DNA of 64,000 nt from an uncultured Gammaproteobacteria bacterium (GTDB lineage Bacteria > Patescibacteriota > Microgenomatia > Levybacterales > UBA12049). This document shows positions 21,555 to 43,107 of this stretch, in pieces; the first letter of the stretch is position 1; each line of letters opens with the position of its first letter. The notes under the pieces are model-generated. The model was not told the DNA's origin, did no database searches, and was given only the letters and a program-made list of their open reading frames with translations. A program made the position numbers and the translations under genes. The stretch is from the NCBI GenBank assembly GCA_964512695.1, contig CAZEJU010000001.1:7803-71802 (forward strand), given 5' to 3'.

Positions 21555-23063
21555 ATGGCGCGTAAAATACCAGCAACAATGGTCTCACAACATCCTGATA
21601 ATGCGAGTAAACCGTACTGGCATACGGAAGAATTTATTAGCACCCAACATGAAACATTTGAATGTTTCTTATCTTTCTCTGAACTTGGTGTCTCTGAATA
21701 TAAATGGGATTGGGAAGGAAAGCTCGTAGATGAGTCTATTATGGAACGGCTTTTTAGCCAGTATTATGAATTTTTTAAGACAAATCCACTAGGTTATAGC
21801 AAATTTCTCACATTCCGTCTTCCAAACCCAAAAGTAGAAACAGAATTCCGTATAGGGCGCGCTTTCATGGGTATTCTCAGTGCGGATATGTTAGCTCGTC
21901 AGCTTGGATTCTACAGTCCCTCCTTATTTGAAGTAATCTTACCAATGACAGAGTCAGCGCAAGAGATGATAGAAATTCAAGAAGCTTTTCGCGAAATGAG
22001 TGGATTAAAACATAAATTATATCGCATGGCAGATAAATCTCTTCGTCATATCGAATTGATTCCCTTATTTGAAGATGTACATACGATAATTAACTCTGCA
22101 AATATTCTCGAACAGTATATTAAACTTCACAAAAAGAAATTTAAATTTTTACCTTCATATATAAGGCCGTACATCGCTCGTTCTGATCCAGCATTAAACG
22201 CAGGAATTGTGCCTACGGTACTTGCAGCAAAAATCGCTCTTTCAAGATACAAAGCATTTTCAGAAAAAACTGGCATTCCTTTATATCCCGTTATAGGCTC
22301 TGCATCCTTACCGTTTCGCGGAGGGCTTACACCAGTAACTGTCGAAGCGTTTGCTAACGAATATAAAGGAGTCCGAACAGCTTTGCTCCAGAGCGCATTC
22401 CGATATGATTATGATAAAAATGTCGTTAAACAGGCAGTGGAACAGCTTGAAAAATTACTTCCTTCAAATAGTGCAATTTCAATACCCCAAAAAGACGAAA
22501 AAGTTATGATCGAGCTTATTAACTTATTCGAGGGATATTATAAACCTACTATAGAACAATTAGCAGATAAGATAAACGCAGTAGCCACATCTCTACCTCG
22601 CAGAAGAGAACGAGTGCAGCATGTGGGTTTATTCGGGTACTCAAGGGGTGTCGGAAAAGTAAAACTACCACGAGCCATAGGGTTTACCGCCGCTATGTAC
22701 TCACTGGGTATTCCTCCAGAAATAATAGGCACGGGACGAGGCATAAAAGAAGCAAAGGAACGCGGACTTCTGCCAGTACTCGAAAAGTATTATGTTAATC
22801 TACAAGCTGATCTCACTCGAGCAGGGAAATACGTTAATAAACCAGCAATTAAAAAACTCGCGAAAACTGATACGACATGGAATGATGTTTTAACAGATAT
22901 AACGGAAATCGAAAAATTCCTTAAGATAGCACTTGAACCTGAGACAGAAGAAGAGAAACAACATAAAACCATTACGGATGATATTACGAAGAAACTTGCT
23001 GCTGAGGAATCTATAGCAAAACTCATAGAACAAGCAGCAGTACTCCGAAAAAGTTTAGGATAG
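21555..23063 (+). CDS. Archaeal-type phosphoenolpyruvate carboxylase (PepcA family)
   Basis: N-terminus KIPATMVSQHPDN and a length of about 500 aa are characteristic of the short archaeal-type PEPC family. Recalled similarity only. Confidence 0.6.
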   Translation: MARKIPATMVSQHPDNASKPYWHTEEFISTQHETFECFLSFSELGVSEYKWDWEGKLVDESIMERLFSQYYEFFKTNPLGYSKFLTFRLPNPKVETEFRIGRAFMGILSADMLARQLGFYSPSLFEVILPMTESAQEMIEIQEAFREMSGLKHKLYRMADKSLRHIELIPLFEDVHTIINSANILEQYIKLHKKKFKFLPSYIRPYIARSDPALNAGIVPTVLAAKIALSRYKAFSEKTGIPLYPVIGSASLPFRGGLTPVTVEAFANEYKGVRTALLQSAFRYDYDKNVVKQAVEQLEKLLPSNSAISIPQKDEKVMIELINLFEGYYKPTIEQLADKINAVATSLPRRRERVQHVGLFGYSRGVGKVKLPRAIGFTAAMYSLGIPPEIIGTGRGIKEAKERGLLPVLEKYYVNLQADLTRAGKYVNKPAIKKLAKTDTTWNDVLTDITEIEKFLKIALEPETEEEKQHKTITDDITKKLAAEESIAKLIEQAAVLRKSLG

Positions 23064-23073
23064 ATCAGAATAA

Positions 23074-23658
23074 TTATTGAAACAACGGAACCGTACCAGA
23101 TCCTACTGAATAAGACTTTCTCTGCCATTCATAACCCATTTCTTCAGCTTTTCTTTCATGGACTTTGTTTAAATGTACTCTTACTGAATCTTGAAATCGA
23201 TATTCAGCTTCATCAGGGTCAAGATTTTCAGGAAATTCTGCAAATGGTCCTTCGCGTCTTCTAAACTGCTGATAATACTCACCACTAATCATACTTATTT
23301 CCTGAGGTTCAAGCACTAAGAGATCAGCCGCAAATTGAAATGTAGCACGAATGATTTGTATAGTTTTAGCTTCAGTAATATTTGTTGGGCCATTTCCGGT
23401 ATGCTTATGCGCTTTAACAGCTTTTTCCATAATTCTCCATACTAAGCTCCTGTCTTCAATTACTGCGTTTCCTAATAATCCCGGCTCAGAAAGCCCATCC
23501 CTTTTACAAATTTCAGCAATGACAGCAGCTTGAGCTGTAACAGATCCAGGCGTTCTTACACTTGCTTGGACAAATAAAGACTCTCCCAAAGTTTTTCTGT
23601 CATTTTCTGATACTTGAGAACCATCACGTGGTGTATATAACATTGCTTCTTTATTCAT
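23074..23658 (-). CDS. Hypothetical protein
   Basis: 194-aa ORF, convergent with the PEPC gene. No recognised family. Confidence 0.4.
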   Translation of the reverse strand: MNKEAMLYTPRDGSQVSENDRKTLGESLFVQASVRTPGSVTAQAAVIAEICKRDGLSEPGLLGNAVIEDRSLVWRIMEKAVKAHKHTGNGPTNITEAKTIQIIRATFQFAADLLVLEPQEISMISGEYYQQFRRREGPFAEFPENLDPDEAEYRFQDSVRVHLNKVHERKAEEMGYEWQRKSYSVGSGTVPLFQ

Positions 23659-23728
23659 AAATACTATAAGACAGAATTATACCAAGAATCTGCTTATTTG
23701 TATAGCACAATATTGAATGTAACACTTC

Positions 23729-23875
23729 TTGACAATAAGCAAAAAGTAGAGTATTATCGGATATAACGATATGCATTATATAAAAGTTGAAAACATGATG
23801 GCAATGATGATGACTTCCTAACGGAGGTGTATCACGTGCTGTTTGTGAACGACCTCCTTACTAGGAGGTTTTTTT
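23729..23875 (+). promoter_or_regulatory. Promoter plus Met-codon leader-peptide transcription attenuator
   Basis: TTGACA(23729)-17 nt-TATTAT(23752). Leader ORF 23771..23821 = MHYIKVENMMAMMMTS. GGAGGU (23823..28) can pair with ACCUCC (23852..57), which alternatively forms the terminator ACCUCCU-uacu-AGGAGGU + U6 (23852..23875). Confidence 0.7.
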
Positions 23876-23886
23876 ATTGTAAAAAT

Positions 23887-24684
23887 ATGTTTGTGACCAT
23901 TATTAACGACTGTACAGATCATAACGTAATAGGAAGGCAACTAACCAGAGCAGCTGTCTTATTTTACGCGCCTGTTATTCCGGTTGGGGTTCACAACGAG
24001 TTAGAAGCTGCCGGAAACCTCATAGATGTTCTCGATGCTGCAGAAAAGGGAAAAGGAGTAATCATTCTGAATGTCGCACCCCGACATGGTAACGCGAAAA
24101 AGTGGCCGAATGGAACACCATTTGCGTACTTTAACGTCAATAATATACTTATTATAGCCACAATAGATGGCTACTCCTTGTCTCTTATAAAAAAACTCAG
24201 GATAATAGATTCCGTGAATCTCCTTGATATTCCTGATGTAGTTAACAGGATGCAAGAAGAACATGTCATTTCTTCAGAACTACGAGATCAAATCATTCAT
24301 ACGCAATTTCGAAGTTTCGAGTTCGCTCCCCGCGTAGCAAAGTGGCTGACCGAAAGAATAGAAATCCCCAGCACACCGTATGCTTTATCCCAAGTTCCTG
24401 ATGTACCAAAAGCTATATGGTATATCGATAATTTCGGAAACTGTAAAACCACACTCCTACCAGAAGATGTAAACTTCCAGGCAGGCAAAAAAGTTCATAC
24501 GGAATTAGGTGAGTTAGCTTGCTATAACAGATTAAAAGATGTCCCTGATGGAAAAACAGCTCTTATCATTGGTAGTTCAGGTTATAAAGATAAACGATTT
24601 ATCGAGTTAATAATCCAAGGTAAAAGCGCAGCACAGATATATGGTCTGCAAGTCGGATCATTAATCATAAATACTATTGGTTAA
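23887..24684 (+). CDS. DUF62-family protein (SAM hydroxide adenosyltransferase / SAM hydrolase-like, divergent)
   Basis: C-terminal hallmark IWYIDNFGNCKTTLL (compare iDxFGNxxTN), NVAPRHG (compare VVDPGVG) and TIDGYSL (compare PDNG). N-terminal motif is divergent (IINDC versus lTDFG). Confidence 0.55.
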   Translation: MFVTIINDCTDHNVIGRQLTRAAVLFYAPVIPVGVHNELEAAGNLIDVLDAAEKGKGVIILNVAPRHGNAKKWPNGTPFAYFNVNNILIIATIDGYSLSLIKKLRIIDSVNLLDIPDVVNRMQEEHVISSELRDQIIHTQFRSFEFAPRVAKWLTERIEIPSTPYALSQVPDVPKAIWYIDNFGNCKTTLLPEDVNFQAGKKVHTELGELACYNRLKDVPDGKTALIIGSSGYKDKRFIELIIQGKSAAQIYGLQVGSLIINTIG

Positions 24685-24794
24685 ATTCGACACTACAGAA
24701 ATAACATTTATGGGAATTAAGATTACCATATTAAAAAATAACAGAAAAATACCTCAATGCCTGGACTAAAGGAATCTCGCATTACCGGCTATTA

Positions 24795-25107
24795 TTGACA
24801 AGCTCAGGCTGATAAGGTAAAGTATGGAAAGAATCAAGAGTGATGGGGAGACCCCAGTCTGATCTTCCTTTTCGCCTTAGTAGATTTCTACTTCGGCTTA
24901 AAGAGCGATCTTACCGGGGCGGGAGTTTTGGCTTCATGATCCATCCGGCAACCCTTCGGTAAGTTCAAACAATGCTTGAACAACGAGCAGGGTGCCAAAC
25001 CCAACCCAAGAGATGTGCTACCGAGTACATCTTCGTAAAGGAGGATTTGATCCTGAGACAATCGAAGGATAAACTATGTATTACCTCTCTTTACGAGAGG
25101 TTTTTTT
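24795..25107 (+). promoter_or_regulatory. Promoter plus S-box (SAM-I)-like riboswitch with extra insert, antiterminator and terminator
   Basis: TTGACA(24795)-17-TAAAGT. S-box-like strings AUCAAGAG (24833), GGGAGUUUUGGCUUCAUGAUCCAUCCGGCAACC (24921..53), GGUGCCAAACCC (24991), AAGAGAUG (25008). UUUGGC (24927) is complementary to GCCAAA (24994), like the SAM-I pseudoknot. Terminator ACCUCUC-uuuac-GAGAGGU + U7 (25083..25107). GUAAAGGAGG (25035) can pair with CCUCUCUUUAC as an antiterminator. Confidence 0.5.
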
Positions 25108-25113
25108 ATTTAT

Positions 25114-26868
25114 ATGGCTAAAGAAGGTGAAATAAAAGGCACATATCAGTTTAGTATAGATGGCCCTCAGCTGACCAGTGACGATATACAGAGGAAGTTC
25201 CCTGGTGTCAAAAATAATGGTCATCTCGGAAAGACTGGTGTAGTACTACATGATACAGCAATTCCTATCGCAGCTATCCGACATCCTCGACTTATACCTA
25301 CGCGGTTAGATGGAATTATACCTGTGTTTGGTGGCCCCCAAACACACAGTAAAATAGAGCATATCCGTATCCGACCAGCTGGTGGCTCAGAAGCGAAAAG
25401 AATAGCAAAAGCAGTCCGTGGAACAACCCCAACACTCGGACCAGAAGCAGAAGCATTTGTACATAACAGAAGAACAGGCAGACTTGTACCTACATTTAAA
25501 GGAAAACAAATTGAAACACAAAAAGCACTGAGAGAAGATGCACTTGGACATACGGGATCGCTTGAAGAACACATCGTAGCATCTGCTAAATTTACAGTTT
25601 TTAGAGCTAATCAAGAGCGCAGACGAGGACGTATCGCAGTTGAAACAAGTGTTCCTATAACCTATGGTGAAGGTAAAGATGCTCGAGATAGTGAAGGTCT
25701 CGCAGGTAGTGAAAATCCATATATTGTGGCTATGACACATCTGTTCCCTGAAAATATGCTCCCTACAGAGAAGCTTGATCCACAAGTTGCAAGCGTTTTA
25801 AATCAATACGCTCTTCGCCATGGGTTTGCGACTATTTCTGATATGACCAGCGCTCTCGGTCTTAACCGCACCTGGCACATGGCTGCAAGCCATCTGAGTC
25901 TTGGTCTACCGCAGGAACAACAACCAGATGGGAAATATATTACTTCTACTGAGATCGCGATAGGAGTTATGAATGTATTTATGAGTGACCTTAATATTTC
26001 GCATATGTTTACTCATGGAACACCTATGCTAGGCGGACAATTAGTAGATGTTCCAGCACGAAATCGTCAATCAGAACATGTGGCCTCAAATCAACCGTTA
26101 CGGGATGTACGACTTGGTGCATTTAAGCATATGTTAGGCACTGCTTATCCTGGCCCGCTTATCGCGAATGAAGAAGATCTCTATGATCGCTGGAGAAAGA
26201 TTGTTATTCCAGGGAAAGCCGCGACTGTAGATCGAGCATCGGCAATTAGTATAGCACCAAATGGAGAAATCTATGCCTCAATGCATGCACGGGCTCGTCT
26301 TCGTGTGGGAGGTGATCCCACAAAACAAACTGTACGAGTCGAATCAGTAGGAGATAGCGCTACACCTTCACGCTACGACTTAATAGCGCGTGACGCGTAT
26401 CTAGTAATGTTATGGAACGGTGCTATGGAGGCAATGGCAAAAGGAAAAACCCCACAAGATTTCTGGGGGGGAAATTATCCAGCAATAACTGACTGGAAAA
26501 AGCAGCAGGAAGCGACATTAGGATTTTCTGTTAATGGACCAGCGAATAGGGAAGCACATGTGCTGATTGAACAAAACCTGGGGTTTTTACGTGATATGAA
26601 AGCTCTCCAACCTACATTAGGTACGTACATCGATTATGTAACAGCACGTATTCGTAATTTTAGTAGACCGACAAAAGCACACACACTCGATGAGTATACA
26701 ACAGATCCATCAGGTAGCATAAGCGAGGTAATTCGACGCATGAAAGAAACCGGATATAAAGATGATGAAATCGTGCGAGCTATTGACACACATCAAACTG
26801 CAGTATCACGAAGAGTTGTTCAAGTTCATGGAGATTTTAAAGCGCTTCTACAAGATGTACAAAAGTAA
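25114..26868 (+). CDS. GCS2 / glutamine-synthetase-fold carboxylate-amine ligase-like protein, paralogue A (584 aa)
   Basis: Shares family landmarks with the other paralogues: GRIAVETSV (G-x-E-x-E-type strand), AASHLSLGLPQ, MHARARLRVGGDPTKQTVRVESVGDSA (R-x-R...E...D, compare HWxxRxx...xExRxxD of GCS2/YbdK). Confidence 0.55.
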   Translation: MAKEGEIKGTYQFSIDGPQLTSDDIQRKFPGVKNNGHLGKTGVVLHDTAIPIAAIRHPRLIPTRLDGIIPVFGGPQTHSKIEHIRIRPAGGSEAKRIAKAVRGTTPTLGPEAEAFVHNRRTGRLVPTFKGKQIETQKALREDALGHTGSLEEHIVASAKFTVFRANQERRRGRIAVETSVPITYGEGKDARDSEGLAGSENPYIVAMTHLFPENMLPTEKLDPQVASVLNQYALRHGFATISDMTSALGLNRTWHMAASHLSLGLPQEQQPDGKYITSTEIAIGVMNVFMSDLNISHMFTHGTPMLGGQLVDVPARNRQSEHVASNQPLRDVRLGAFKHMLGTAYPGPLIANEEDLYDRWRKIVIPGKAATVDRASAISIAPNGEIYASMHARARLRVGGDPTKQTVRVESVGDSATPSRYDLIARDAYLVMLWNGAMEAMAKGKTPQDFWGGNYPAITDWKKQQEATLGFSVNGPANREAHVLIEQNLGFLRDMKALQPTLGTYIDYVTARIRNFSRPTKAHTLDEYTTDPSGSISEVIRRMKETGYKDDEIVRAIDTHQTAVSRRVVQVHGDFKALLQDVQK

Positions 26869-27021: not shown

Positions 27022-28503
27022 ATGTCCCGAATACACGAATTACCAAGTATCCATACACTCTCTTCTACTGATGCTCAAAGATATTGGGATAAGTTACATC
27101 CAATAAAAGTTGTATCTCATGAGAGACCCCTGCAATACGGACATCCAGTTGAAATTCCTCCTAAACTCGCAGGAACTATTGGCAGATCAGCAAATCTCAT
27201 GGAAGAAATTGCGATAGATAGCATTATGCAACAAGGGGCCACTACATGGCTTGGAAATAATGCGGCTTCTTTCGCAGGTGATAGTCTTAACATACAAGAA
27301 ATCAACCACCAGCTCGAAGGTAGGCTTCTTCAAGGCTATCGATTACCTATTAGTTACGATGGAATGATAACAGTCTTTCGTGGAAGACCACATTATACAG
27401 TAGTGGAAGCACAATCTCTAGTTGCTCATGGCCCATGGATTCGGTCTATGCTTCAAGCAGCAGATAAAGATCCAGATGATCCATCATCATGGCAAGGGAA
27501 AGAAAATCCTACCCTCGTAGTTCAACAAATGAAAGACAATTTCGCGAAGGGTGAAGTTATAACAGTATTAGATACCACTCCACTTTCAGGTCCATTTATT
27601 CATGAACAAGTGGGTCTAGCGAAAGCATTAGGAACATCGGGAAGCGTGCCTATTTCTGCGCTTGATATCCAATTTAATCCTGAAATAGGTTATTTTCATT
27701 ACGGTTATGCAGTTGATACTAGAGGCTACCCTATACCAAATGGAAACGGCTTTTTAAGAACATCCGACCGAATACCAATCCGGCATGTGTTAAGCCGTAT
27801 GACGCAACCTGATCTGGATCATTTATACAATCTGGTCCGCGGTAACCCCCAACAAAGTGAACTTATACTCAAGTTCTTACGAGATGAAAAGATTAATTGG
27901 ATCTGGCATCCAGCATGGCAGTCCCTCATCGATAAATCGAGATTACCATATATCTGTAAAAAACTGGAAGAAAGACAAGAAAACGTAACACGCAATCAAT
28001 TTGTTCCGATTTTCGTAGCCGGTGAAACTCCACCCCTAGGAACGTATGTGCGTAAACCCGTAAGCAGCGTCCAAGGTGAAGGAGTAACAATTGTGCAAGT
28101 TAATGGCGTACCTCAACAAGTCGAAGAAGGCACAGTATACCAAAAGTATTTTTACCCGTATCCGTTTTCCATTCCCTTAGACGCAGAAATAGCACGGCAA
28201 TTTCCTGTAACACCCCATGCTCCCAGAAATGTCGCGTCTGGCTTCCAGGAACATTTCGGTTGGGGACAAACCACAACGCCTGCTAGTCTAGAATTATGTT
28301 ATATGGTGCCACCTTGGTGTAAAGGAGAACTTACGGGATATTTTATAGGGAGAGTAGCACCCAGGTATACAGGACCAGATTCAAGAAACATAACCCAAAC
28401 AAACCTCTCAAAAGCGCAAGCTGCGATGTACGAATATATCCGAGATCAGGATCATTGGAAAACACCCTTCGGCTTTTCCCCTGTAACTCTTCAAAAGACT
28501 TAA
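27022..28503 (+). CDS. ATP-grasp-like ligase (glutathionylspermidine-synthase-like flavour), 493 aa
   Basis: IWHPAWQSLIDKSRLPYI (compare the W..l.nKa.l..L motif of GspS-type pre-ATP-grasp proteins) and YVRKPVSSVQGEGVTIV (K-P-x-x-x-x-x-G-x-G-V ATP-grasp strand). Own TTGAAT-18-TACAAT promoter-like signal at 26982..27011. Confidence 0.45.
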   Translation: MSRIHELPSIHTLSSTDAQRYWDKLHPIKVVSHERPLQYGHPVEIPPKLAGTIGRSANLMEEIAIDSIMQQGATTWLGNNAASFAGDSLNIQEINHQLEGRLLQGYRLPISYDGMITVFRGRPHYTVVEAQSLVAHGPWIRSMLQAADKDPDDPSSWQGKENPTLVVQQMKDNFAKGEVITVLDTTPLSGPFIHEQVGLAKALGTSGSVPISALDIQFNPEIGYFHYGYAVDTRGYPIPNGNGFLRTSDRIPIRHVLSRMTQPDLDHLYNLVRGNPQQSELILKFLRDEKINWIWHPAWQSLIDKSRLPYICKKLEERQENVTRNQFVPIFVAGETPPLGTYVRKPVSSVQGEGVTIVQVNGVPQQVEEGTVYQKYFYPYPFSIPLDAEIARQFPVTPHAPRNVASGFQEHFGWGQTTTPASLELCYMVPPWCKGELTGYFIGRVAPRYTGPDSRNITQTNLSKAQAAMYEYIRDQDHWKTPFGFSPVTLQKT

Positions 28504-32108: not shown

Positions 32109-33269
32109 ATGGTAAAAACTATGAAAGAAGGAGTTATTATACAAGTTGATCCGAGAATACCAGAGCCATATATAACATATATCCGGCAACGAAATGGGAA
32201 TGTCGGCAGAGATATAGCAGATCACCTTGGCCTACCCTATGTAGGAGACAGTCAGGGAGTACAACGTGCAGCTGATTATTATCCTGTACTTGCCAGAACT
32301 GTCACCAGAGAACATGCAAGAGTATTAGGTGCAGAAAATACAAGAGATTTCTATGGTCTTGCAGTTGAAGATTTAAATGTTGTGGGTAAATCTATACTCC
32401 ATCCTTCTATAAGCAGAAGACATCCTTTATTTCATAGAGAACAATTCGCACGAAAAGTCTTAGGTCAAACCCTTCCTGGTATAACCGGTTTCTCTAAAGA
32501 AGATTTATTAGCAGGGTATGAAAATGGTTACGCTGGATCACTGGATCATGCTTTAGATTACGAGCAGTATGGATTACGTGTTAAACTTCCAAATGAATCC
32601 GACGGCGTAGGACAATTTACTATACAAAGCAAGGATGATCTGGTTACTCTTCTAGAAGCTATTGAGGATAAAGATATCCACGAACAAGGACTGGTTCTGG
32701 AAGCTGATGTACAGAAACCTGAGACTATATCAGTCGGATTCGCGAGAATCGGTGATGAACAATTAAGTTTCATAGCCCAACAAAAAGATGCACGTGTGTT
32801 AGTAGATCATAAGGGCAAAACAATAGAGCAGAATAGATATGGTGGGGCATACGTCGTTGTGGCAAAAGGCCCTTTACAGTTACTATGCCAAGCCACGGAA
32901 GCAACTTCGCGTGAGAGATCTGCTGTAGAAAAAACACTGGCGTTTCATGAAGCCTATCAACGCATCTATGATCCTTTAGCTTCGAGATTAAGTTTCGATG
33001 TCATTTTCGGAGAAGGGAAAAACGGTCTCCCACTTGCAGGAATAAGTGACATTACTGGTAGGCTAGGTGGAACGTGTCCAGCACTCATGCAAGCTGCTGA
33101 AGAGTTCAGGAAAAACCCTTCTATTCAAATGGTAGGAACAGAAGTATCTCTTAATTATACTCCCCATGTACGATTTCCCTATGAAGATGAAGCTAAGGTG
33201 TATGTAGACCACCCAACACTCAGACTTACAGCAAGAGTAAACTCAAAACACAGAAGACTCGCAGCATAG
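32109..33269 (+). CDS. ATP-grasp-like protein (386 aa from the ATG at 32109)
   Basis: GLRVKLPNESDGVGQFTIQSKDDLVTLLE.. and ..GLVLEADVQKPETISVGFARIG.. fit ATP-grasp central-domain strands. I rejected the ORF-track start (32028) because it overlaps the leader terminator. Confidence 0.4.
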   Translation: MVKTMKEGVIIQVDPRIPEPYITYIRQRNGNVGRDIADHLGLPYVGDSQGVQRAADYYPVLARTVTREHARVLGAENTRDFYGLAVEDLNVVGKSILHPSISRRHPLFHREQFARKVLGQTLPGITGFSKEDLLAGYENGYAGSLDHALDYEQYGLRVKLPNESDGVGQFTIQSKDDLVTLLEAIEDKDIHEQGLVLEADVQKPETISVGFARIGDEQLSFIAQQKDARVLVDHKGKTIEQNRYGGAYVVVAKGPLQLLCQATEATSRERSAVEKTLAFHEAYQRIYDPLASRLSFDVIFGEGKNGLPLAGISDITGRLGGTCPALMQAAEEFRKNPSIQMVGTEVSLNYTPHVRFPYEDEAKVYVDHPTLRLTARVNSKHRRLAA

Positions 33270-33278
33270 ACATGAATC

Positions 33279-33422
33279 TTGACATTACACATGGGCTATC
33301 CTATAATCATTTATATGATACGACAAGCAGTAAATTTCTTTTTCTTTTTTACCCCACTCGCGGGGAGGTAATTTCGTGATCACACGAAATACTCTATACC
33401 CCGCATAAGGCGGGGTTTTTTT
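33279..33422 (+). promoter_or_regulatory. Consensus promoter plus Phe-codon leader-peptide attenuator
   Basis: TTGACA(33279)-17-TATAAT(33302). Leader ORF 33315..33371 = MIRQAVNFFFFFTPLAGR, with its ATG only 7 nt after the -10 (leaderless). CCCC/GGGG (33352/33362) 1:2 hairpin. GCGGGG (33360) can pair with CCCCGC (33399), versus terminator CCCCGC-auaag-GCGGGG + U7 (33399..33422). Confidence 0.8.
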
Positions 33423-33435
33423 ATGGAGGAATTCT

Positions 33436-35136
33436 ATGGCAATGACTGAACAAGACATACTAAAAGGTACAATGAACGGCCGAGTTGATTCAGGTTTAAA
33501 GGCAACTGATAACACAGCAGTACCTTTAGGTGAACAATCTCATGGCGGCATAGTCCGAAATACCGATGGACTATGGTGGCTACCTGCCTCACCACATCGC
33601 GGAAGGGGTTTCGAATGGCAAGACTCAAAGGATCCTAGATATAACGCAACACATTTAAGTGAAGTTGGCTACCACCCTGAACCTCTAGAACCACAGAGAA
33701 CCGTAGAAGTATTAGCTGAACATTTACAAGAAAAAGTTGAAGGAAGAATTCCGGAAACAGAAACCCATGGAGTTGAAGTTGAAGGGACTACCTATGATCG
33801 AGAAGGCAATCTCTTAGCAATTCCTGTCGATCAGAAAACAAATCCCGAATTATTAGCTTCTACACATGAAGAAGCCACAAAACTGGAAAACGGACAGTAC
33901 CCGAGAAAACCATTTGAAATAGCTCGAGCAGTAGCCAGTGCAACCCAGCGGGGTATCGCAATCGCTGAAAATCATAGCGGAATACTTGTCCTCACAGAAG
34001 TACCAGAAGGTGGAACATTTCATGATGCTGAAAACAGTACATTTCCATATATAGTACGTCAACAAGGAAGAATTCGAAGACACGCATTAGCACACCTTGA
34101 TGAGATACCTGAAGAAACATGGGCTCTCTATCGACGTTACGGCGTAGATATTCGAGAACTACTGGAATCTAATAGACCGCTCAATTGGCCTACTCATGGA
34201 TTGCATCATCATGCCGGTGCGCCACAAATAGAAGGATTAGTCGACCCGAGAGCCGCACTGGTTATGGGAAAAATGCGTCAAACACTTTTTGCAAAATTAC
34301 TGCAATACCCAGCATTTAATAGCAGTAGATTATATGAAAAAGAAACTGATCTCCGCGGAGTCCGATCTGTCGCAAAACACGCGCTTGCTACAACAGTTAA
34401 TAATGATTTACCTGATAGTGCTGAAGAGCTAATGTGGGATGTGCAACGGGCAATGAGAGAGGGAGAAATCGCTACGCCTTCACGATATCCTTATAAAGGC
34501 CAACACGATGTCGTTCGATTTAGGATGGATGGAAAACATAAAACTGTCGAGTCTATTAAAGATCCTATGACACCTGACCTATTAACAGCGCTTCATCTCG
34601 TGTTCGGCAATCAACTCCTGGATACCATCGGCCAGCAAGCTCTCGTACAAGTAGGTGGAGATGAAAGCAAAGTTATGGGTTATTTACAATCTATACATCC
34701 TGAGCTTTTTGCCACATTGCCTTCATTAGGTCCTGAGTCATCACATAGTGCAGATATGCAGTTTAATAAAGCAGGGTATCTAGGAACATTCCGCGGGAAA
34801 ACTTATGCTGAGCTTATAAGAGATGCACGTGCTGTCGTGGAAGGGGTAGGCAAACATTATACAGCACTTGAGACACAAGCTAAAATTGTAAATCACGTAC
34901 TAGGATACCAAACAGATATTCCTCATCCACAGACTGATCTAGCAACATTTATGGGAATAAAAAATGGAGTTTACCAACCAAATAGTATGAGAGCAGGAAT
35001 TCTAACGGATTATAAAACGGGTATTCCTACAAATGAACTGTTAGTTGTCCAGGCTGAAGCAACGAAATTACAAGCTCAAGCTTTAGCACAAGTGAGAGAT
35101 GATAAAGATCTTCTCGAAGTGTATGGATTACAGTAA
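33436..35136 (+). CDS. GCS2-fold carboxylate-amine ligase-like protein, paralogue C (566 aa)
   Basis: HGVEVEGTTY, THGLHHHAGAP, GQHDVVRFRMDGKHKTVESIKDPM. GGAGG SD 6 nt upstream. Confidence 0.55.
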   Translation: MAMTEQDILKGTMNGRVDSGLKATDNTAVPLGEQSHGGIVRNTDGLWWLPASPHRGRGFEWQDSKDPRYNATHLSEVGYHPEPLEPQRTVEVLAEHLQEKVEGRIPETETHGVEVEGTTYDREGNLLAIPVDQKTNPELLASTHEEATKLENGQYPRKPFEIARAVASATQRGIAIAENHSGILVLTEVPEGGTFHDAENSTFPYIVRQQGRIRRHALAHLDEIPEETWALYRRYGVDIRELLESNRPLNWPTHGLHHHAGAPQIEGLVDPRAALVMGKMRQTLFAKLLQYPAFNSSRLYEKETDLRGVRSVAKHALATTVNNDLPDSAEELMWDVQRAMREGEIATPSRYPYKGQHDVVRFRMDGKHKTVESIKDPMTPDLLTALHLVFGNQLLDTIGQQALVQVGGDESKVMGYLQSIHPELFATLPSLGPESSHSADMQFNKAGYLGTFRGKTYAELIRDARAVVEGVGKHYTALETQAKIVNHVLGYQTDIPHPQTDLATFMGIKNGVYQPNSMRAGILTDYKTGIPTNELLVVQAEATKLQAQALAQVRDDKDLLEVYGLQ

Positions 35137-38346: not shown

Positions 38347-38492
38347 TTGACGTCCAAATAGATATAACTCTATAATACAAAGTGTTCTATATGAATATCA
38401 TGAATAACAATGGAGCAGTAAAGAAGAACCTCTCGTAAGAGGGGTCTTTCTGTTGTCTGCACAATAGTACCCCTTACAGAAGGGGTTTTTTT
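38347..38492 (+). promoter_or_regulatory. Promoter plus Asn-codon leader-peptide attenuator
   Basis: TTGACG(38347)-18-TATAAT(38371). Leader ORF 38391..38438 = MNIMNNNGAVKKNLS (5 Asn in 15 aa). CCUCU/AGAGG hairpin over the stop codon. GAGGGG (38439) can pair with CCCCUU (38470), versus terminator CCCCUU-acag-AAGGGG + U7 (38470..38492). Confidence 0.65.
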
Positions 38493-38615: not shown

Positions 38616-39899
38616 ATGAAAGAAGGACTAAAAGTATTATCACACTCATCTATAGAGGAATATCTATTCGATACTGATGTCGAAGACCGATATTATATTC
38701 CGTGGCGTGCAGCCGCAGAAGCAGCAGCAAGAATCGAACTAGGACAACAAGTTTTGACAATCCTTCCAAAACGTGAAGCTTTTAACGAATACCTCACCCT
38801 TTTACAAATGAAATTACTGGGAGGAAGAAGTATTCCAACGCTGTTTACACCTGATGAAGATTATCTTATGGATACTGATATTAAAAAATATCTTATGGAT
38901 ACTCTTCGTGGCAGATTTAACAGAAGTACCACTATTCATCCCTATCAAGCAACACCTGAATTTTATGATTGGGCGGGGGAGTTAGAACAGAAAGGCGTTA
39001 AAATTTACGCAGATAGAAAACGCAAAGACTTACGTGACTGGTGGGGACATAAAGGAGCATATCATCGATGGATAGATGATCTCGATACTCCCACTCAATT
39101 TGAAGGATTACATTTACCAATACCTCGAGGATACGTGGCTCAAAACCATGGAGAATTACTTGTAGCGAAAAAACTTCTACCAACTGACACTGTTGTGGCA
39201 AAACCAATTTTCGGAGCTGGTGGATTTCAAATAGAGTTCTTAGACGACGATAATATCGATACATATGAATGGCCTACCGACCCCACAACGGAAAAACCCA
39301 TGCCAGTTGCTGTACAAGAAAGACTAAGAATTGGTCGAGATGAATTCGGCGAACGTGTTTTTTCCTACCAGTTTGAGGGCCCACAACCAATGGGACGATT
39401 AACACGACAAATTATGGATCAGGAAACTGGGAAAGTCTGGAGTGGGAATAGAGTACCAGCAGATGTTACACCTGAGTTTGAACGAAGAGCAAAGGATGTA
39501 GTTCATACTTTAGTCATGAAAACAAAACCAAAAGGAGACGGGGGAGTCGATATAGCAGATGTAGATGGAGAACCAGTAATCATCGAAGTAAACGGAGGAA
39601 GGCCAACTGGCGCACATATGCCGAAACGATTTCAACAAGCCTTCGCGCCTGAAGCTCCACATTTCGTATTTCAGAAAGTAGAACCAAACGGATATTCACC
39701 ATTCGATATTTGGGATAGACTCGAAGGAGGAAACTTGCCTCGCACGAATGAAACTCTAGTATTTCAGCGTGAAAGACAACGCGGGGTTTTTCCATTAGTT
39801 TGGTTACCGAACTCTTGGGGAATGCTTGCAAGCTTCGGAGGATCATTCGAAGAAGCAAATAATCAGTTACTCGCAGCTCGTGATAGAATAGGCGTATGA
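38616..39899 (+). CDS. ATP-grasp-like ligase (427 aa)
   Basis: VVAKPIFGAGGFQIEFL, ..GGVDIADVDGEPVIIEVNGGRPTG.. (ATP-grasp C-terminal E-x-N region). AGGAGG SD. Confidence 0.5.
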   Translation: MKEGLKVLSHSSIEEYLFDTDVEDRYYIPWRAAAEAAARIELGQQVLTILPKREAFNEYLTLLQMKLLGGRSIPTLFTPDEDYLMDTDIKKYLMDTLRGRFNRSTTIHPYQATPEFYDWAGELEQKGVKIYADRKRKDLRDWWGHKGAYHRWIDDLDTPTQFEGLHLPIPRGYVAQNHGELLVAKKLLPTDTVVAKPIFGAGGFQIEFLDDDNIDTYEWPTDPTTEKPMPVAVQERLRIGRDEFGERVFSYQFEGPQPMGRLTRQIMDQETGKVWSGNRVPADVTPEFERRAKDVVHTLVMKTKPKGDGGVDIADVDGEPVIIEVNGGRPTGAHMPKRFQQAFAPEAPHFVFQKVEPNGYSPFDIWDRLEGGNLPRTNETLVFQRERQRGVFPLVWLPNSWGMLASFGGSFEEANNQLLAARDRIGV

Positions 39900-40966
39900 C
39901 TGAGAAAAGGGTAGTACAAATATTTTTCGATTTAGTAAAAATTGACAGCCCTTCTGGACATGAAGAGAACGTTTTAGAGTATATAGAAGCATATTGCAAA
40001 AAACTCTCACTAAATACACAGAGGGATTCTTATGGAAACCTCATCGTTAAAAAAGAAGGAGTAGGTGAACCACTACTTCTCTGTTCACATGCCGATACAG
40101 TAGAACCAGGGAAAAATATTCAACCACGAATAGAGAACGGAATTATAAAAAGCGATGGTACGACGATACTTGGTGCTGATAATAAATCGTCTATTGCAGC
40201 GATTCTCGAGGCTGTGAAACAATTAGTTGAAGAAAAAAAACACCATAGGCCTCTAGAGCTTGTGTTTACAAAATCTGAAGAAGTTGCTAGCTGGGGAGCA
40301 GTATATCTGGACTACAAACAACTTCAAGCAAAAGAAGGATATACGATAGATAACGCAAATCCTGTAGGAACAATTGTCTACGCGTCTCCTTTTTACTATC
40401 GTTTCGATATTACAGTATTCGGTAAAGATGCCCATGCTTCAAGACCGCATGAAGGAATTCATGCTTTAAAAATCGCTGCAAGCGCCATTCATAAAATAAA
40501 ACTTGGAAAAATTGATACAAATACACTTGCCAATATCGGCATGATCCAATCAGGCCATGTACGCAACACAATTCCAGGTTCAGTAGTGCTTATGGGAGAA
40601 GTACGAAGCTATTCCGATGAGAAAGCTCAAAGGTACTTAAACAAAATTATTGATACATTTAGAAAAACTGCAGAAAAAACGGGAGGATCTATAACGTACG
40701 AAACGCTGAAAGAAAATGCTGGGTATATATATAAAACAAATGATCCCTTTGTAAAAAAAACGATGCAGATTATGAAAAAGATTGGAGTAGAAACGAACTT
40801 AATTAAAACTCTGGGCTGTGCCGATGCAAATGTGATCCAAGAGCATGGAATTAAAATGCTCGACCTGGGCGACGGCTCACGCAGAGCGCATACACTAAAG
40901 GAGTCAATACCGGTAGCACAGTTACAAAGAGTCGTTGAGCTAGTATTAGCTCTTGCTGGAGCATAA
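39896..40966 (+). CDS. M20-family metallopeptidase (second copy, peptidase T-like)
   Basis: SPSGHE, SHADTVEPG, LGADNKSSIA, KDAHASRPHEGIHA. ATGA start/stop overlap with the upstream ATP-grasp gene. Paralogue of 30591..31676. Confidence 0.75.
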   Translation: MTEKRVVQIFFDLVKIDSPSGHEENVLEYIEAYCKKLSLNTQRDSYGNLIVKKEGVGEPLLLCSHADTVEPGKNIQPRIENGIIKSDGTTILGADNKSSIAAILEAVKQLVEEKKHHRPLELVFTKSEEVASWGAVYLDYKQLQAKEGYTIDNANPVGTIVYASPFYYRFDITVFGKDAHASRPHEGIHALKIAASAIHKIKLGKIDTNTLANIGMIQSGHVRNTIPGSVVLMGEVRSYSDEKAQRYLNKIIDTFRKTAEKTGGSITYETLKENAGYIYKTNDPFVKKTMQIMKKIGVETNLIKTLGCADANVIQEHGIKMLDLGDGSRRAHTLKESIPVAQLQRVVELVLALAGA

Positions 40967-41085: not shown

Positions 41086-41204
41086 ATGCGATATACTTTC
41101 TTCAACATGAGTAAATCAGTTTTCGGAACTACCACTACAACAACCCTTTCCTAAGGGAGGTTGGCGTGGTATTATTTAACAACCTCCTTAATAGGAGGTT
41201 TTTT
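41086..41204 (+). promoter_or_regulatory. Thr-codon leader-peptide attenuator
   Basis: AGGGAG SD, then leader ORF 41086..41154 = MRYTFFNMSKSVFGTTTTTTLS (6 consecutive Thr codons). CCCUU/AAGGG 1:2 hairpin. AAGGGAGGUUG (41153) pairs with CAACCUCCUU (41180), versus terminator CCUCCU-uaau-AGGAGG + U6 (41183..41204). The terminator is nearly identical to that of the Met leader. Confidence 0.8.
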
Positions 41205-41322: not shown

Positions 41323-43107
41323 ATGACAAACGAACAAGAACTAAAAATAGGAGGACAAAAATCAGCGACGAAAGTTGATTTCGCTCATGCTGAGCATCCT
41401 TTAACCCATGCACGTCTTTATGAAGCAGTAGAAGAACGACGTGGTACCGTAGGTCCTGTAGGAGATGTTCCCAGAGCATATATAAGGGACTCTGCAACTG
41501 CGGCAATTATAGTAAGCACACCTTCAAAAGAGGTGGTTGCTGCTGTTCGATCACCTCTATGGATTCCTAGTGGTGTACGAAATGGAAGAGTAGAATTTGG
41601 TGGAAGACCAGATAAAGATCATATCGAATTTTCTTACTTACGTGAAACTGATTGGGAGTATGTAAAAGAATCTGCGAGGAAAAGATTAGACGCACTTAAA
41701 AAAGCCACAAAACTTAACGAATTTGTTGCTGAGCATGGAGGCTATCTCGGTATAGGAACAGAGCCGGAAGCATTTCTCCTTCATGAAGATGGCAGTGTCG
41801 TACAGATAAACGCTGGAGAGTCATTTTTAGGCCAGAGAGAAGACGCTCTGCCACCGATAGCGACACCCAGAGAGTATGCCCGCGCACGAGCGGAACTTAT
41901 TCAAAATCGAAGACAGCAATTACAGGCTGGTCAAATTGCCTTCGACGGCTCAGTTCGACCTACGGGGAAGATGAGCGAAACAAGAATAACCCAAGAAGGT
42001 GATGAAGCAATATATAATGTAGCTATCACGCAAGCGCTCCATACACGATACACCCATTGTGCAGATCCATTAACACGACAAATCATGGATCAGCTTGCTA
42101 AAACAGAAAACTATAGAGATTTTGACGAAATCTATAATCATGCTTCAACGATAACATACTGGGGTCCTCCCTCTGCATCGCATGCAGCTATAGGAATGCA
42201 TCAAAGACGCGAAAATGGGACAACCTTTGTACCAGAATGGGAAGCAGTAGCTCATGCAGATGTCATAAATAGCGATTTCGCAACTGCTGATGAACTACTG
42301 ATGATGTCAACGCCAGTCATATTCGGAGAACAACCTCAAGTTTTACATAAAGGTACATGGAGAAAACCACGCGACTATCGTCATTTTATGCGACATGTCG
42401 TTGACACTACCTATCCAGCACCTTTTGTCGGCTCGCCAGAAGCATTACGAGCAAATGTTACCGACAGTATACTCTCCGGCAGATCGCACACACTTGATAG
42501 ATCTGCATATACTGCAGATGTACATGGTTTATTAGTCCCTAACTATCATGGAAGAGTACGGATTAGACAAAAGGTTGATGTTACTCATAAAGGAGAAATT
42601 AAACAATCATGCCGTATAGAAGAAACAGGATGTTCACAGTCCGCATCTTTACCTGATGAATTGGCAAGAAATGCACTTATGCAGCTTAGAGCTGTTGCTG
42701 TCGACGAAGCCCTCGCAGCAGGTATGCATCCCTCTGAATTCTATAAAGAGAAATATCCGCATATGACAACTTGGCAAAAGCAGCAAGATATCGTACTCCA
42801 TGCAAATCTCTATGGTTTCCGACATCCTTTACCATCTGCTGTGATAATGGAAAATATTAGGCTTGTACGAGATATCGGTAAGAGATATCCTGTACTCGGT
42901 CTTCAAGCCGTACTCGCAGAAACACGCTTGAGAAATTTATTTGATGATCCAGCACGCTCTTTAGAAGTTTATGAACAAAAACCTATTGGTCCATTTAGCG
43001 AAGTTCTCCAGAATGAATTACATAATGGTACTTCACCTGTAGAACTCGCTCAAAAAGTAGCCGCTTACCAGGATACAGTAGCGGAAAAGATATTAAGAGT
43101 TCCATAG
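41323..43107 (+). CDS. GCS2-fold carboxylate-amine ligase-like protein, paralogue D (594 aa)
   Basis: YLGIGTEPEAFLLHEDG, SASHAAIGMHQ, NYHGRVRIRQKV...SCRIEETGCSQSA. Lies between the Thr attenuator and thrS. Confidence 0.55.
   Translation: MTNEQELKIGGQKSATKVDFAHAEHPLTHARLYEAVEERRGTVGPVGDVPRAYIRDSATAAIIVSTPSKEVVAAVRSPLWIPSGVRNGRVEFGGRPDKDHIEFSYLRETDWEYVKESARKRLDALKKATKLNEFVAEHGGYLGIGTEPEAFLLHEDGSVVQINAGESFLGQREDALPPIATPREYARARAELIQNRRQQLQAGQIAFDGSVRPTGKMSETRITQEGDEAIYNVAITQALHTRYTHCADPLTRQIMDQLAKTENYRDFDEIYNHASTITYWGPPSASHAAIGMHQRRENGTTFVPEWEAVAHADVINSDFATADELLMMSTPVIFGEQPQVLHKGTWRKPRDYRHFMRHVVDTTYPAPFVGSPEALRANVTDSILSGRSHTLDRSAYTADVHGLLVPNYHGRVRIRQKVDVTHKGEIKQSCRIEETGCSQSASLPDELARNALMQLRAVAVDEALAAGMHPSEFYKEKYPHMTTWQKQQDIVLHANLYGFRHPLPSAVIMENIRLVRDIGKRYPVLGLQAVLAETRLRNLFDDPARSLEVYEQKPIGPFSEVLQNELHNGTSPVELAQKVAAYQDTVAEKILRVP

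Follow-up and report, generated by a model that had tools for sequence, protein, structure and literature searches.

What does an open reading frame of 16 codons, rich in methionine codons and lying between a promoter and a terminator, do upstream of a gene encoding a DUF62-like protein? This arrangement is found in the window, which is the whole stretch of 64,000 nucleotides that was analyzed. The first-pass annotation of this DNA had proposed a methionine-starvation circuit made of the leader and the DUF62-like gene. The comparative evidence presented below largely supports this circuit, read-through and enzymatic activity being inferred. The element is quite likely a transcription attenuator of the ribosome-mediated (leader-peptide) type that responds specifically to methionine, with the reservation that read-through upon stalling and the reaction of the enzyme are deduced. 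The features of the locus are the following.

23729–23757, forward strand: σ70-type promoter scoring 11/12, with TTGACA (23729–23734), a 17-nt spacer and TATTAT (23752–23757).
23771–23821, forward strand: leader small open reading frame (sORF) encoding MHYIKVENMMAMMMTS, with its stop codon, near-leaderless and without Shine-Dalgarno (SD) sequence, from the reading of the ORF.
23795–23812, forward strand: regulatory Met-codon run ATG ATG GCA ATG ATG ATG, unique in the window and with equivalents in 43 related leaders.
23813–23818, forward strand: segment 1, ACUUCC (codons Thr-Ser), partner of segment 2 or segment 4 in the MFE and centroid structures.
23822–23829, forward strand: segment 2, CGGAGGUG, 5′ strand of the antiterminator, from its duplex with the terminator 5′ arm and its spacing.
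23851–23858, forward strand: segment 3, GACCUCCU, 5′ arm of the terminator and also 3′ strand of the antiterminator, from hairpin folding.
23863–23875, forward strand: segment 4, AGGAGGUU, 3′ arm of the terminator, and U-tract (hairpin of −10 to −11.5 kcal/mol, then T7).
23887–24684, forward strand: regulated gene, encoding a 265-residue divergent DUF62-fold protein, putatively a SAM-cleaving, L-Met-releasing enzyme (Pfam, AF2/Foldseek, hhalign).

The promoter, the sORF, the terminator and the gene starting at 23887 follow each other in the order expected of a leader-peptide attenuator. The sORF runs from ATG 23771 to TAA 23819–23821, 13 nt separating the end of the −10 box from its start codon. 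What the first pass stated of the sequence was confirmed throughout: five of six successive codons (23795–23812) are Met codons, and GGAGGU (23823–23828) is found one base past the stop codon. The strong terminator described there as ACCUCCU-uacu-AGGAGGU-U6 was retrieved as GACCUCCU-UACU-AGGAGGUU at 23851–23870, whose 8-bp stem precedes a T run extending to 23875. A fourth complementary segment, absent from that annotation, is the ACUUCC at 23813–23818, which can pair with either copy of GGAGG; ACC-UCC or ACU-UCC codons adjoin the Met run in most related leaders. Two in-frame GTG codons were considered as gene starts, at 23827 and at 23836, the latter 8 nt after GGAGG and extending the protein through the terminator. 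Both were excluded because the N-terminal Met-Phe at 23887 is invariant in 27 homologues.

The pairing of GGAGGU with the 5′ arm of the terminator, likewise proposed in the first pass, withstood comparison with dinucleotide shuffles: the duplex of segments 2 and 3 amounts to −11.3 kcal/mol, versus −5.2 for the shuffles (z = −4.1, p = 0.003). The same duplex was better than shuffles, with p ≤ 0.05, in 12 of 17 leaders from a scan that was blind to the downstream gene, and the antiterminator and terminator sequences covary from AT-rich to GC-rich genomes. In the window, segment 2 begins 12 nt downstream of the last Met codon, counted from that codon's first base. Across the 43 related leaders, the distance from the last Met codon to segment 2 has a median of 15 nt (IQR 13.5–16), and the position of the stop codon relative to the antiterminator strand ranges from −25 to +6 nt, a spread of 31 nt.

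The effect of a ribosome on the predicted structures was examined by footprint-constrained folding of these 43 leaders. The pairing probability of the terminator 3′ arm was 0.97 both in the free RNA and with the ribosome at the stop codon, 0.91 with the ribosome ahead of the run, and fell to a minimum of 0.15 in the Met run. For 41 of the 43 leaders, the lowest terminator probability lay in the Met run or at the codon just past it, a result that holds for footprints of +10 to +14 nt. In the window's own leader, the dip with the ribosome on the run was partial, as the 3′ arm retained a pairing probability of 0.30–0.54 with any partner; the hairpin of segments 3 and 4 itself dropped to 0.01–0.27. 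The duplex, the spacing and the constrained folding together fulfil what is required of the alternative antiterminator of a leader-peptide attenuator, with only this partial dip in the window.

From these predictions, the following functioning is proposed. Transcription would start a few bases before the AUG of the sORF, and the ribosome would load onto a leaderless or near-leaderless mRNA. When Met-tRNA(Met) is ample, the ribosome would pass the Met run, reach the UAA and cover segment 2 (GGAGGU); segments 3 and 4 would pair into the terminator and RNA polymerase would stop at the U-tract. Without ribosome, pairing of segment 1 with 2 and of 3 with 4 (or of 1 with 4 and of 2 with 3) is predicted to bring a hairpin next to the U-tract again. 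When Met-tRNA(Met) is scarce, the ribosome would stall at the last Met codons, masking segment 1 and leaving segment 2 free. Segment 2 could then pair with segment 3, and segment 4 would remain without partner, allowing read-through into the DUF62-like gene.

The same hairpin could instead act mainly on translation. Its 3′ arm, AGGAGG, would hide the SD sequence, translation of the sORF would open the hairpin, and the U-tract would be secondary. In six related loci (L103, L098, L134, L132, L006 and L009), the GGAGG of segment 4 is positioned 7–11 nt before the regulated start codon, and the hairpin therefore also masks an SD sequence there. In the window, however, GGAGG ends 18 nt before ATG 23887, which is beyond SD range. 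The terminators of GC-rich relatives have no SD-like arm (GGGCCGGUC, CGGCUG) and yet keep the U-tract, and no leader lacks a hairpin with a U run behind it. Translational control as the main mode is consequently considered improbable, and transcription attenuation is retained.

Conservation of the Met run at orthologous loci had been designated in the first pass as a test that could refute the circuit. This test was passed. In 14–17 of 80 Patescibacteria loci, a Met-run sORF was found at most 160 nt ahead of the orthologous gene; the run is kept in about 20% of the loci, in several Patescibacteria lineages. With a strict definition of the run (at least four ATG in seven codons, in an ORF not exceeding 45 codons), 16 matches were obtained in 476 kb (both strands): 14 within 160 nt upstream of an orthologue and two elsewhere. 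This corresponds to about 14 occurrences in 16 kb upstream of orthologues versus two in about 935 kb. A relaxed definition yielded 19 loci with a Met-run leader, of which about 17 have a terminator. In the closest relative (66% identity), MNRQNTASTMMMSAS is followed by CGGAGG..GACCUCC..GGAGGU-U. A covariance model built without the window returned the window leader as its top match (43 bits, E = 2.5e-7). Around 80% of the orthologous loci are devoid of Met leader, including that of the second-closest relative, and a search with Rfam found no other known riboregulator in them.

The start signals of the sORFs are uniform. No SD-like sequence was found upstream of the sORF in any of 40 related leaders, and in 35 of them the promoter ends 3–13 nt (median 7) before the ATG.

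It could be argued that the AUG repeats and hairpins form a riboswitch or a protein-binding site that senses Met or SAM, translation of the sORF being irrelevant. The 127-nt leader RNA of the window is indeed significantly structured (folding z = −3.8). As methionine has a single codon, synonymous-site evidence for translation of the sORF cannot be obtained, and conservation of the ATG codons cannot separate selection at the RNA level from selection at the protein level. Against such an RNA-only switch, the Met runs are always in frame with the ATG located 3–13 nt after the −10 box, are never interrupted by a stop codon, and contain spacer codons that vary freely. There is no conserved structure of the size of an aptamer, only about 20 variable nucleotides lying between segments 2 and 3, and no match to an Rfam family. 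Moreover, leaders of the Thr, Phe and Asn types, of like build and present in the same window, differ from the Met leader essentially by the repeated codon. Sensing by the RNA alone is therefore held to be very unlikely, and sensing by a translating ribosome is preferred.

The scan of metagenomes that ignored the downstream gene gave 59 loci, about 40 of which have Met-run sORFs of 13–21 residues. The genes that follow these leaders encode MetRS (PF09334, E = 1e-94), canonical DUF62 proteins (PF01887 plus PF20257) and DUF62-like proteins of the window type. DUF2000-MetRS, B3_4-MetRS and DUF62-MetRS operons also follow such leaders, DUF62 being often in one operon with MetRS. The regulated genes of an attenuator are expected to concern the sensed amino acid, and this is fulfilled by MetRS, canonical DUF62 and the DUF62-MetRS operons. 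In the 43 related leaders, peptides of 13–27 residues contain three to six clustered Met codons each, and an intrinsic terminator, a hairpin followed by a U run, is always present. The occurrence of Met leaders before MetRS and canonical DUF62 genes is the strongest evidence for the Met attenuator, and it is independent of the reasoning of the first pass. Neither a MetRS nor a canonical DUF62 gene is present within the 64-kb window.

These associations also bear on the idea that the Met-rich peptide itself is functional, for example as a substrate or RiPP precursor of the DUF62-like enzyme, the terminator merely setting the stoichiometry. A peptide gene, a partial terminator and an enzyme gene are a common RiPP layout. 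However, the same peptides also precede MetRS and unrelated genes, apart from the Met run and the Thr-Ser codons of segment 1 nothing in them is conserved, and, with 13–27 residues, they lack a leader/core organization; this idea is hardly tenable. Finally, a chance juxtaposition of a short ORF and an ordinary terminator, conceivable as AT-rich intergenic DNA is rich in short ORFs, is effectively refuted by the pattern ATGATGNNNATGATGATG, which has a single occurrence in the window and was absent from 100 dinucleotide-preserving shuffles, by the enrichment upstream of orthologues, and by the recovery of the window leader with a covariance model drawn from other genomes.

The 265-residue protein was assigned to DUF62 in the first pass from the hallmark IDNFGNxxTT, which is present in the ORF as YIDNFGNCKTT. 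The fold check suggested at that stage was passed, the fold being that of DUF62; the Pfam domain SAM_HAT_C (PF20257) matches with E = 2e-9, but the N-terminal domain PF01887 gives no match. With 16 bits on NCBIfam NF058624, for a cut-off of 350, the protein does not meet the usual definition by both Pfam domains or the NCBIfam equivalog. It has more than 1100 homologues, for the most part in Patescibacteria. As a sequence profile search of the PDB was nearly blind (best E of 0.11), a fold search was used. The AF2 model (pLDDT 92.7) returned in Foldseek 14 top PDB matches that are all DUF62, SalL or fluorinase, with E down to 6e-11 and TM-scores of about 0.65, establishing the two-domain DUF62 fold.

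Canonical DUF62 sequences for profile comparison were gathered by tblastn against plasmid records with a fluorinase sequence, which served only as bait for real homologues and as one row of one alignment; a 42-residue fragment of MJ1651 used as a protein-search query found no match. Comparison of the 265-residue protein with canonical DUF62 by hhalign gave a probability of 97.5 and E = 2.6e-11. The local alignment covers the C-terminal half only. The global one places WPNGTPF on WPxGTxF with a gap over the DPGVG loop, leaving the register of the Asp and Arg ambiguous.

Like DUF62 proteins (SAM hydroxide adenosyltransferase/(R)-SAM hydrolase), the chlorinase SalL and the fluorinase FlA, the protein has two domains and retains SAM-binding motifs, invariant in 27 homologues and aligned to the canonical DUF62 ones: D8, the N-terminal Asp after strand 1; D181-N-F-G-N185; and G229-S-S-G232, the G/N-S-x-G region. 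Unlike them, it shares only 13–18% identity with solved members of the fold, and F-H-G-R-D is replaced by F-R-S-x-E, His becoming Arg142 and Gly becoming Ser143. The FRS (141–143) was aligned to FHG in both hhalign runs, an invariant Arg occupying the His position. Deng et al. reportedly identified D68/R75/H127 as the triad of PH0463. The Asp-Arg-His triad (DPGVGxxR, FHGRD) is incomplete here, as the His is absent, and the Asp and Arg equivalents are uncertain, the motif and secondary-structure register pointing to Ala64 and Lys71. The protein is a divergent DUF62 subfamily. Since the N-domain model finds no match and Arg stands in for the triad His, its function as a SAM hydrolase is only inferred, without demonstrated activity.

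What DUF62 proteins do physiologically is debated, the current proposal being the repair of (R)-SAM. All characterized DUF62, SalL and FlA members displace L-Met from C5′ of SAM (10.1101/2025.08.29.672840; PMC12120602). By inference, L-methionine would be released by attack of the window's enzyme on C5′ of SAM or of the inactive R-sulfonium epimer. This enzyme and MetRS, which related genomes place behind a leader of this kind, might jointly constitute a Met-starvation response in bacteria unable to make methionine. It can be objected that breaking down SAM seems a costly way of obtaining Met, except if (R)-SAM or imported SAM serves as the substrate. Read-through itself is inferred, without support from expression, Term-seq or ribosome-profiling data. 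Because DUF62 is co-regulated and often co-operonic with MetRS under a Met-starvation signal, it is suggested that DUF62 serves, in these auxotrophs at least, to make methionine available to translation again.

At the gathering threshold, neither the window nor any of 40 related loci matched an Rfam family, and a permissive search (E ≤ 5) of 23650–25150 gave nothing relevant. The sub-threshold matches RNAI, Phe_leader and STnc370 were discarded, as they reflect the terminator hairpin only. Neither the T-box nor the SAM riboswitches can claim the element, in the absence of an Rfam covariance match, and a literature search found no described methionine leader peptide. In the first pass, too, no description of the circuit was known. 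Judging from sequence, the switch very probably represents a methionine-starvation attenuator that had not been described before. Methionine would then join the short list of amino acids sensed by leader-peptide attenuation, in a phylum where gene regulation is almost unknown.

The design lends itself to direct searches: a −10 box is followed by a leaderless AUG and a codon run, then, at a spacing of about 12–16 nt, by the antiterminator strand, and by a terminator. This rule already picks out the Thr, Phe and Asn siblings, the Thr-type leader of the window lying upstream of ThrRS. Several protein families of unknown function are now tied to an amino-acid-specific signal. A broader hypothesis, which remains tentative, is that Patescibacteria rely on leaderless leader-peptide attenuators of one family (Met, Thr, Phe and Asn types in this window) instead of T-boxes as general sensors of amino-acid starvation, with a salvage regulon of DUF62-fold enzymes and MetRS as the Met branch. 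If so, the DUF62-fold enzymes co-operonic with MetRS would free L-Met from SAM, (R)-SAM or host-derived SAM. The window-type subfamily, with Arg and Ser for the active-site His and Gly, might then represent a novel way of cleaving SAM and not simply a hydrolase. The co-regulated DUF2000, stand-alone B3/4 and 566–594-residue proteins without Pfam domain would be amino-acid-specific factors of salvage or tRNA quality control.

Among known systems, Met T-box and SAM riboswitches (S-box and others; metS/metG, metK and Met transport, in Firmicutes and others) follow the same logic of premature termination dependent on Met or SAM, including at MetRS. The Met leader differs in having no tRNA- or SAM-binding aptamer, the proposed sensor being the translating ribosome. 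Closer in build are the leaderless sORFs encoding polycysteine that attenuate Cys-pathway operons in mycobacteria (bioRxiv 10.1101/834739). As far as the available part of that report allows comparison, both have a leaderless first cistron, a codon run for one amino acid as sensor, and matching downstream genes; the amino acid and the phylum are different, and the Met leaders have a canonical intrinsic terminator and antiterminator pair in every member. With the classical attenuators (trpL, hisL, leuL, thrL, pheL and pheST in Proteobacteria), the Met leader shares a short ORF with a run of cognate codons, four segments with mutually exclusive 1:2/3:4 and 2:3 pairings, an intrinsic terminator ahead of the structural gene, and regulated genes that supply or charge the sensed amino acid. 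A His leader of the same kind precedes hisS paralogues in bacilli (PMC2965389). Unlike these, the Met leader senses methionine, its sORF is leaderless or near-leaderless without SD sequence, and its hosts are Patescibacteria. Its regulon consists of MetRS and DUF62 enzymes presumed to cleave SAM, and not of a biosynthetic operon.

The element ahead of the gene for the 265-aa DUF62-like protein is very probably a Met-responsive leader-peptide attenuator, a judgement made without any measurement of expression. Its leader RNA contains four mutually complementary segments, of which 2 and 3 form the antiterminator and 3 and 4 the terminator hairpin.

Parts of the Met leader (window positions, strand)
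23729-24684, +: whole feature, from the -35 box of the promoter through the stop codon of the 265-aa gene
23729-23757, +: promoter TTGACA-17 nt-TATTAT, matching the consensus at 11/12 positions
ATG 23771 to TAA 23819-23821, +: short leader ORF (sORF) MHYIKVENMMAMMMTS, starting 13 nt past the -10 box
23795-23812, +: Met run ATG ATG GCA ATG ATG ATG, occurring once in the 64-kb window
23813-23818, +: segment 1, ACUUCC, corresponding to the Thr-Ser codons
23822-23829, +: segment 2, CGGAGGUG
23851-23858, +: segment 3, GACCUCCU
23863-23870, +: segment 4, AGGAGGUU, with a T run behind it up to 23875
ATG 23887, +: start of the structural gene, 265 aa

The Met-run pattern was absent from all of 100 dinucleotide-preserving shuffles of the window. 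ATG 23887 is the real start of the gene, because all 27 aligned homologues open with MF at this position; the starts at GTG 23827 (that of the listed ORF) and at the in-frame GTG 23836 were rejected. An archaeal-type phosphoenolpyruvate carboxylase is encoded two genes upstream (21555-23063; PF14010, E 5e-134). The divergent 194-aa neighbour (23074-23658, - strand) has no match in Pfam or NCBIfam.

In 17 leaders picked regardless of their terminator sequence, the terminator 5' arm has a complementary partner, the antiterminator strand, in the stretch that separates the terminator from the Met run. In 12 of the 17 this partner outperformed dinucleotide shuffles (p ≤ 0.05), with z = -4.1 for the window, and its sequence shifts together with that of the terminator (GGAGG/CCUCC, GGGGCCGG/CCGGCCCC, GGGAAGGCUG/AGCCUUCCC). 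The first-pass annotation had reported a 16-codon sORF with five Met codons in six positions and, just past it, a GGAGGU segment complementary to the terminator 5' arm; this sequence observation is confirmed in all details. In a set of 43 leaders, the distance from the first base of the last Met codon to the antiterminator partner has a median of 15 nt (IQR 13.5-16). The place of the stop codon varies between 25 nt inside the partner and 6 nt before it. What is kept at ribosome-footprint distance is the Met run and not the point where the ORF ends.

Folding was predicted with ViennaRNA under a footprint constraint that forbids pairing up to 12 nt past the first base of the A-site codon, the ribosome being moved codon by codon. 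The median probability that the terminator 3' arm is paired in the 43 leaders was 0.97 without ribosome and 0.91 while the ribosome was still upstream of the run, fell to a minimum of 0.15 within the run, and returned to 0.97 once the ribosome had reached the stop codon. The minimum was located in the run or one codon past it in 41 of the 43, and footprint sizes of +10, +12 and +14 nt all gave this outcome. For the leader in the window the predicted dip is weaker: the 3:4 hairpin goes down to 0.01-0.27, and overall pairing of segment 4 drops only to 0.30-0.54 because this segment partly pairs elsewhere.

A sigma-70-type promoter (at least 8/12 consensus matches) ends 3-13 nt, with a median of 7 nt, ahead of the sORF ATG in 35 of 40 leaders, the 13-nt spacing in the window being the longest. 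None of the 40 has a sequence resembling a Shine-Dalgarno (SD) upstream of the sORF. From these distances and the absent SD, and without expression data, it is therefore concluded that Met-leader sORFs are translated from leaderless or near-leaderless transcripts. Such a build would couple ribosome loading with transcription initiation. Segment 4 has its GGAGG 7-11 nt ahead of the start of the structural gene in several relatives, so that in these the terminator hairpin masks the SD as well; the distance is 18 nt in the window.

When 26 leaders from metagenomes, with the window excluded, were made into a covariance model, it returned the window's Met leader as its top match (43 bits, E 2.5e-7) and also recovered the leaders of the genome loci. 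Two more sites in the window were matched by this model, and a third was found by a codon-run scan.

Sibling leaders in the window
Thr leader MSKSVFGTTTTTTLS: sORF 41107-41154, terminator 41182-41199, then a 594-aa ORF (41323-43107, no Pfam match) and threonyl-tRNA synthetase (43198-44937)
Phe leader MIRQAVNFFFFFTPLAGR: sORF 33315-33371, GC-rich terminator 33398-33416, then a 566-aa ORF (33436-35136, no Pfam match)
Asn/Lys-rich leader MNIMNNNGAVKKNLS: sORF 38391-38438, terminator 38469-38486, then an ATP-grasp protein and an M20 peptidase (ORFs 38616-39899 and 39896-40966)

The Thr leader has six consecutive Thr codons and the segment layout of the Met leader; its switch is predicted to be clean, the terminator probability dropping to 0.00-0.07 at the last Thr codons and nowhere else. 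The Phe sORF starts 7 nt past a consensus promoter, TTGACA-17-TATAAT, and the gene upstream of this leader (32121-33269) encodes a DUF3182 protein. The Asn/Lys-rich leader was matched by the covariance model with E 0.003; its predicted switch window spans V-K-K-N codons and its amino-acid specificity is unclear. The last codon of the run is 12 nt ahead of segment 2 in the Met, Thr and Asn leaders. Leaders of one genome that differ essentially in the repeated codon provide strong internal evidence, at the level of sequence, that the codon run would set the specificity.

Just past the DUF62-like gene, at 24795-25113, there is a promoter-like site with a strongly structured 287-nt leader (z -3.9) and a terminator at 25083-25101, followed by ORFs 25114-26868 and 27022-28503. 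The 584-aa ORF that comes next after the terminator, without Pfam match, is a paralogue of the 594-aa ORF behind the Thr leader (26% identity, E 1e-39). The 287-nt leader contains no codon-run sORF and is not matched by Rfam; it could be a riboregulator that has not been described.

More than 1100 homologues of the 265-aa protein were found, nearly all in Patescibacteria/CPR genomes and metagenomes, the nearest being only 64-66% identical. Several TPA assembly labels, such as 'Gammaproteobacteria', appear unreliable. Orthologous loci were sampled from species-representative genomes (n = 80; 476 kb, both strands). When an ORF had to have no more than 45 codons and 4 or more ATG within 7 codons (strict definition), 16 Met-run sORFs were present in the 476 kb, 14 of them no more than 160 nt upstream of the orthologous gene. 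A relaxed definition gave 19 of the 80 loci, about 17 of these with a terminator too. They span AT-rich and GC-rich genomes labelled Saccharibacteria, Wildermuthbacteria, Uhrbacteria, Paceibacterota, Dojkabacteria and others. The closest relative (66% identity) has MNRQNTASTMMMSAS, then CGGAGG, GACCUCC, GGAGGU and a U run; the second-closest lacks the Met sORF and retains promoter and hairpin. The leader is thus conserved, in a patchy manner, being present at about 20% of orthologous loci; the first-pass annotation had named lack of conservation as a refutation.

Three loci (L002, L005, L146), including the second-closest relative, retain a consensus promoter and, ahead of the gene, a short hairpin that leads into a U run; they have no Met-run sORF, and may represent a degenerate or different regulatory form. 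Nine Roizmanbacteria/Woesebacteria-like loci have no Met leader; they carry another conserved block about 120 nt upstream of the gene, with adjoining tRNA genes, and no Rfam match was obtained in the subset scanned.

Metagenome contigs were also scanned with a pattern that leaves the downstream gene unspecified: ATGATGNNNATG, a gap of 25-55 nt, CCTCC, 3-7 nt, GGAGGTTTT. This blind scan gave 59 loci, about 40 with sORFs of 13-21 codons (for example MNTKTSMMMAMLAV, MNKQTSIMMAMYAV, MKLNFAMMMEMMTS).

Genes behind Met leaders (L-numbers denote individual loci)
Window-type (divergent) DUF62-like protein: 11 loci, by tblastn
Canonical DUF62: 11 loci, both Pfam domains, intact VVDPGVGSxR and TFHGRD motifs
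Methionyl-tRNA synthetase (MetRS): PF09334, E 1e-94
DUF62 then MetRS: L111, L114, L144, L143, L134, L091
DUF2000 then MetRS: L112, L139
B3/4-domain protein then MetRS: L088
Small unknown protein then MetRS: L097, L128

MetRS is the expected target for a sensor of Met-tRNA charging, and it adjoins the window-type gene in 4 of the 80 genome loci. The order Met leader, DUF62 (canonical or window-type), B3/4 and/or DUF2000, MetRS was noted in 11 loci (the nine with DUF62, DUF2000 or B3/4 before MetRS, plus L115 and L125). As they belong to conserved Met-leader operons, DUF2000 and stand-alone B3/4 proteins share their regulation with MetRS; tRNA(Met) or Met may be what they act on. Leaders MRTKTVVMMTMPS (L098) and MRALFTTMMHMPS (L129) precede related proteins of 346 and 318 aa, without Pfam match, which are candidates for further members of the Met regulon. 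In L094, from about 27 to about 1550 nt past the leader terminator, the MetRS frame opens (MAKKKFYITAAIPYVNAH...), is broken within a few codons and continues only about 1.1 kb on; the gap contains an HTH and LAGLIDADG endonuclease ORF. The interrupted frame and the endonuclease ORF inside it suggest an intron or intein in metG.

The assignment of the 265-aa protein to DUF62 in the first-pass annotation is borne out at the level of the fold, within a divergent subfamily. The D-N-F-G-N hallmark is present (181-185), as are D8, the Asp after strand 1, and G-S-S-G (229-232). Only the C-terminal Pfam domain, SAM_HAT_C, was matched (E 2e-9), not the N-domain model; the NCBIfam (R)-SAM hydrolase equivalog gave 16 bits against a cut-off of 350, and a PDB sequence profile search gave E 0.11 at best. 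The AlphaFold2 model is confident (pLDDT 92.7, pTM 0.90). A Foldseek search of the PDB with this model gave DUF62 proteins, SalL or fluorinase for every one of the best 14 matches (E 6e-11 to 1e-6, TM about 0.65, 13-18% identity), the next being at E 0.16. Global profile-profile alignment to canonical DUF62 gave a probability of 97.5% and E 2.6e-11. The active site is altered, the canonical F-H-G-R-D becoming F-R-S-x-E: an invariant Arg142 takes the place of the triad His, and Ser143 that of the next Gly, the position of the halide-binding Ser of fluorinase. The residues standing in for the Asp and Arg of DPGVGxxR were not resolved by the alignment. Judged by its modelled fold, the protein is a member of the superfamily, yet of a distinct subfamily.

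Characterised DUF62 enzymes convert SAM to adenosine and L-Met, preferring the inactive (R)-sulfonium epimer, and all characterised members of the superfamily displace L-Met from C5' of SAM (10.1101/2025.08.29.672840; PMC12120602). On balance, release of L-Met from SAM or (R)-SAM is inferred for the window enzyme, no enzyme assay being available; the inference is strengthened by the regulatory signal common to this protein, canonical DUF62 and MetRS.

No Rfam family matches the Met leader, and searches of full-text literature gave no Met-codon leader peptide, which is no proof that it is unpublished. The mechanism is of the classical type, that of ribosome-mediated attenuation in trp, his and phe. 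The closest precedents for its particular features are the leaderless polycysteine sORFs of mycobacteria (10.1101/834739, as far as the available part of that source goes) and leader peptides of aminoacyl-tRNA synthetases, for instance in bacilli, where a His leader lies upstream of hisS paralogues (PMC2965389). The Met leader differs from classical attenuators in its new amino-acid specificity, its leaderless build and its new phylum, and in its regulon, which consists of MetRS and SAM-cleaving enzymes instead of a biosynthetic operon.
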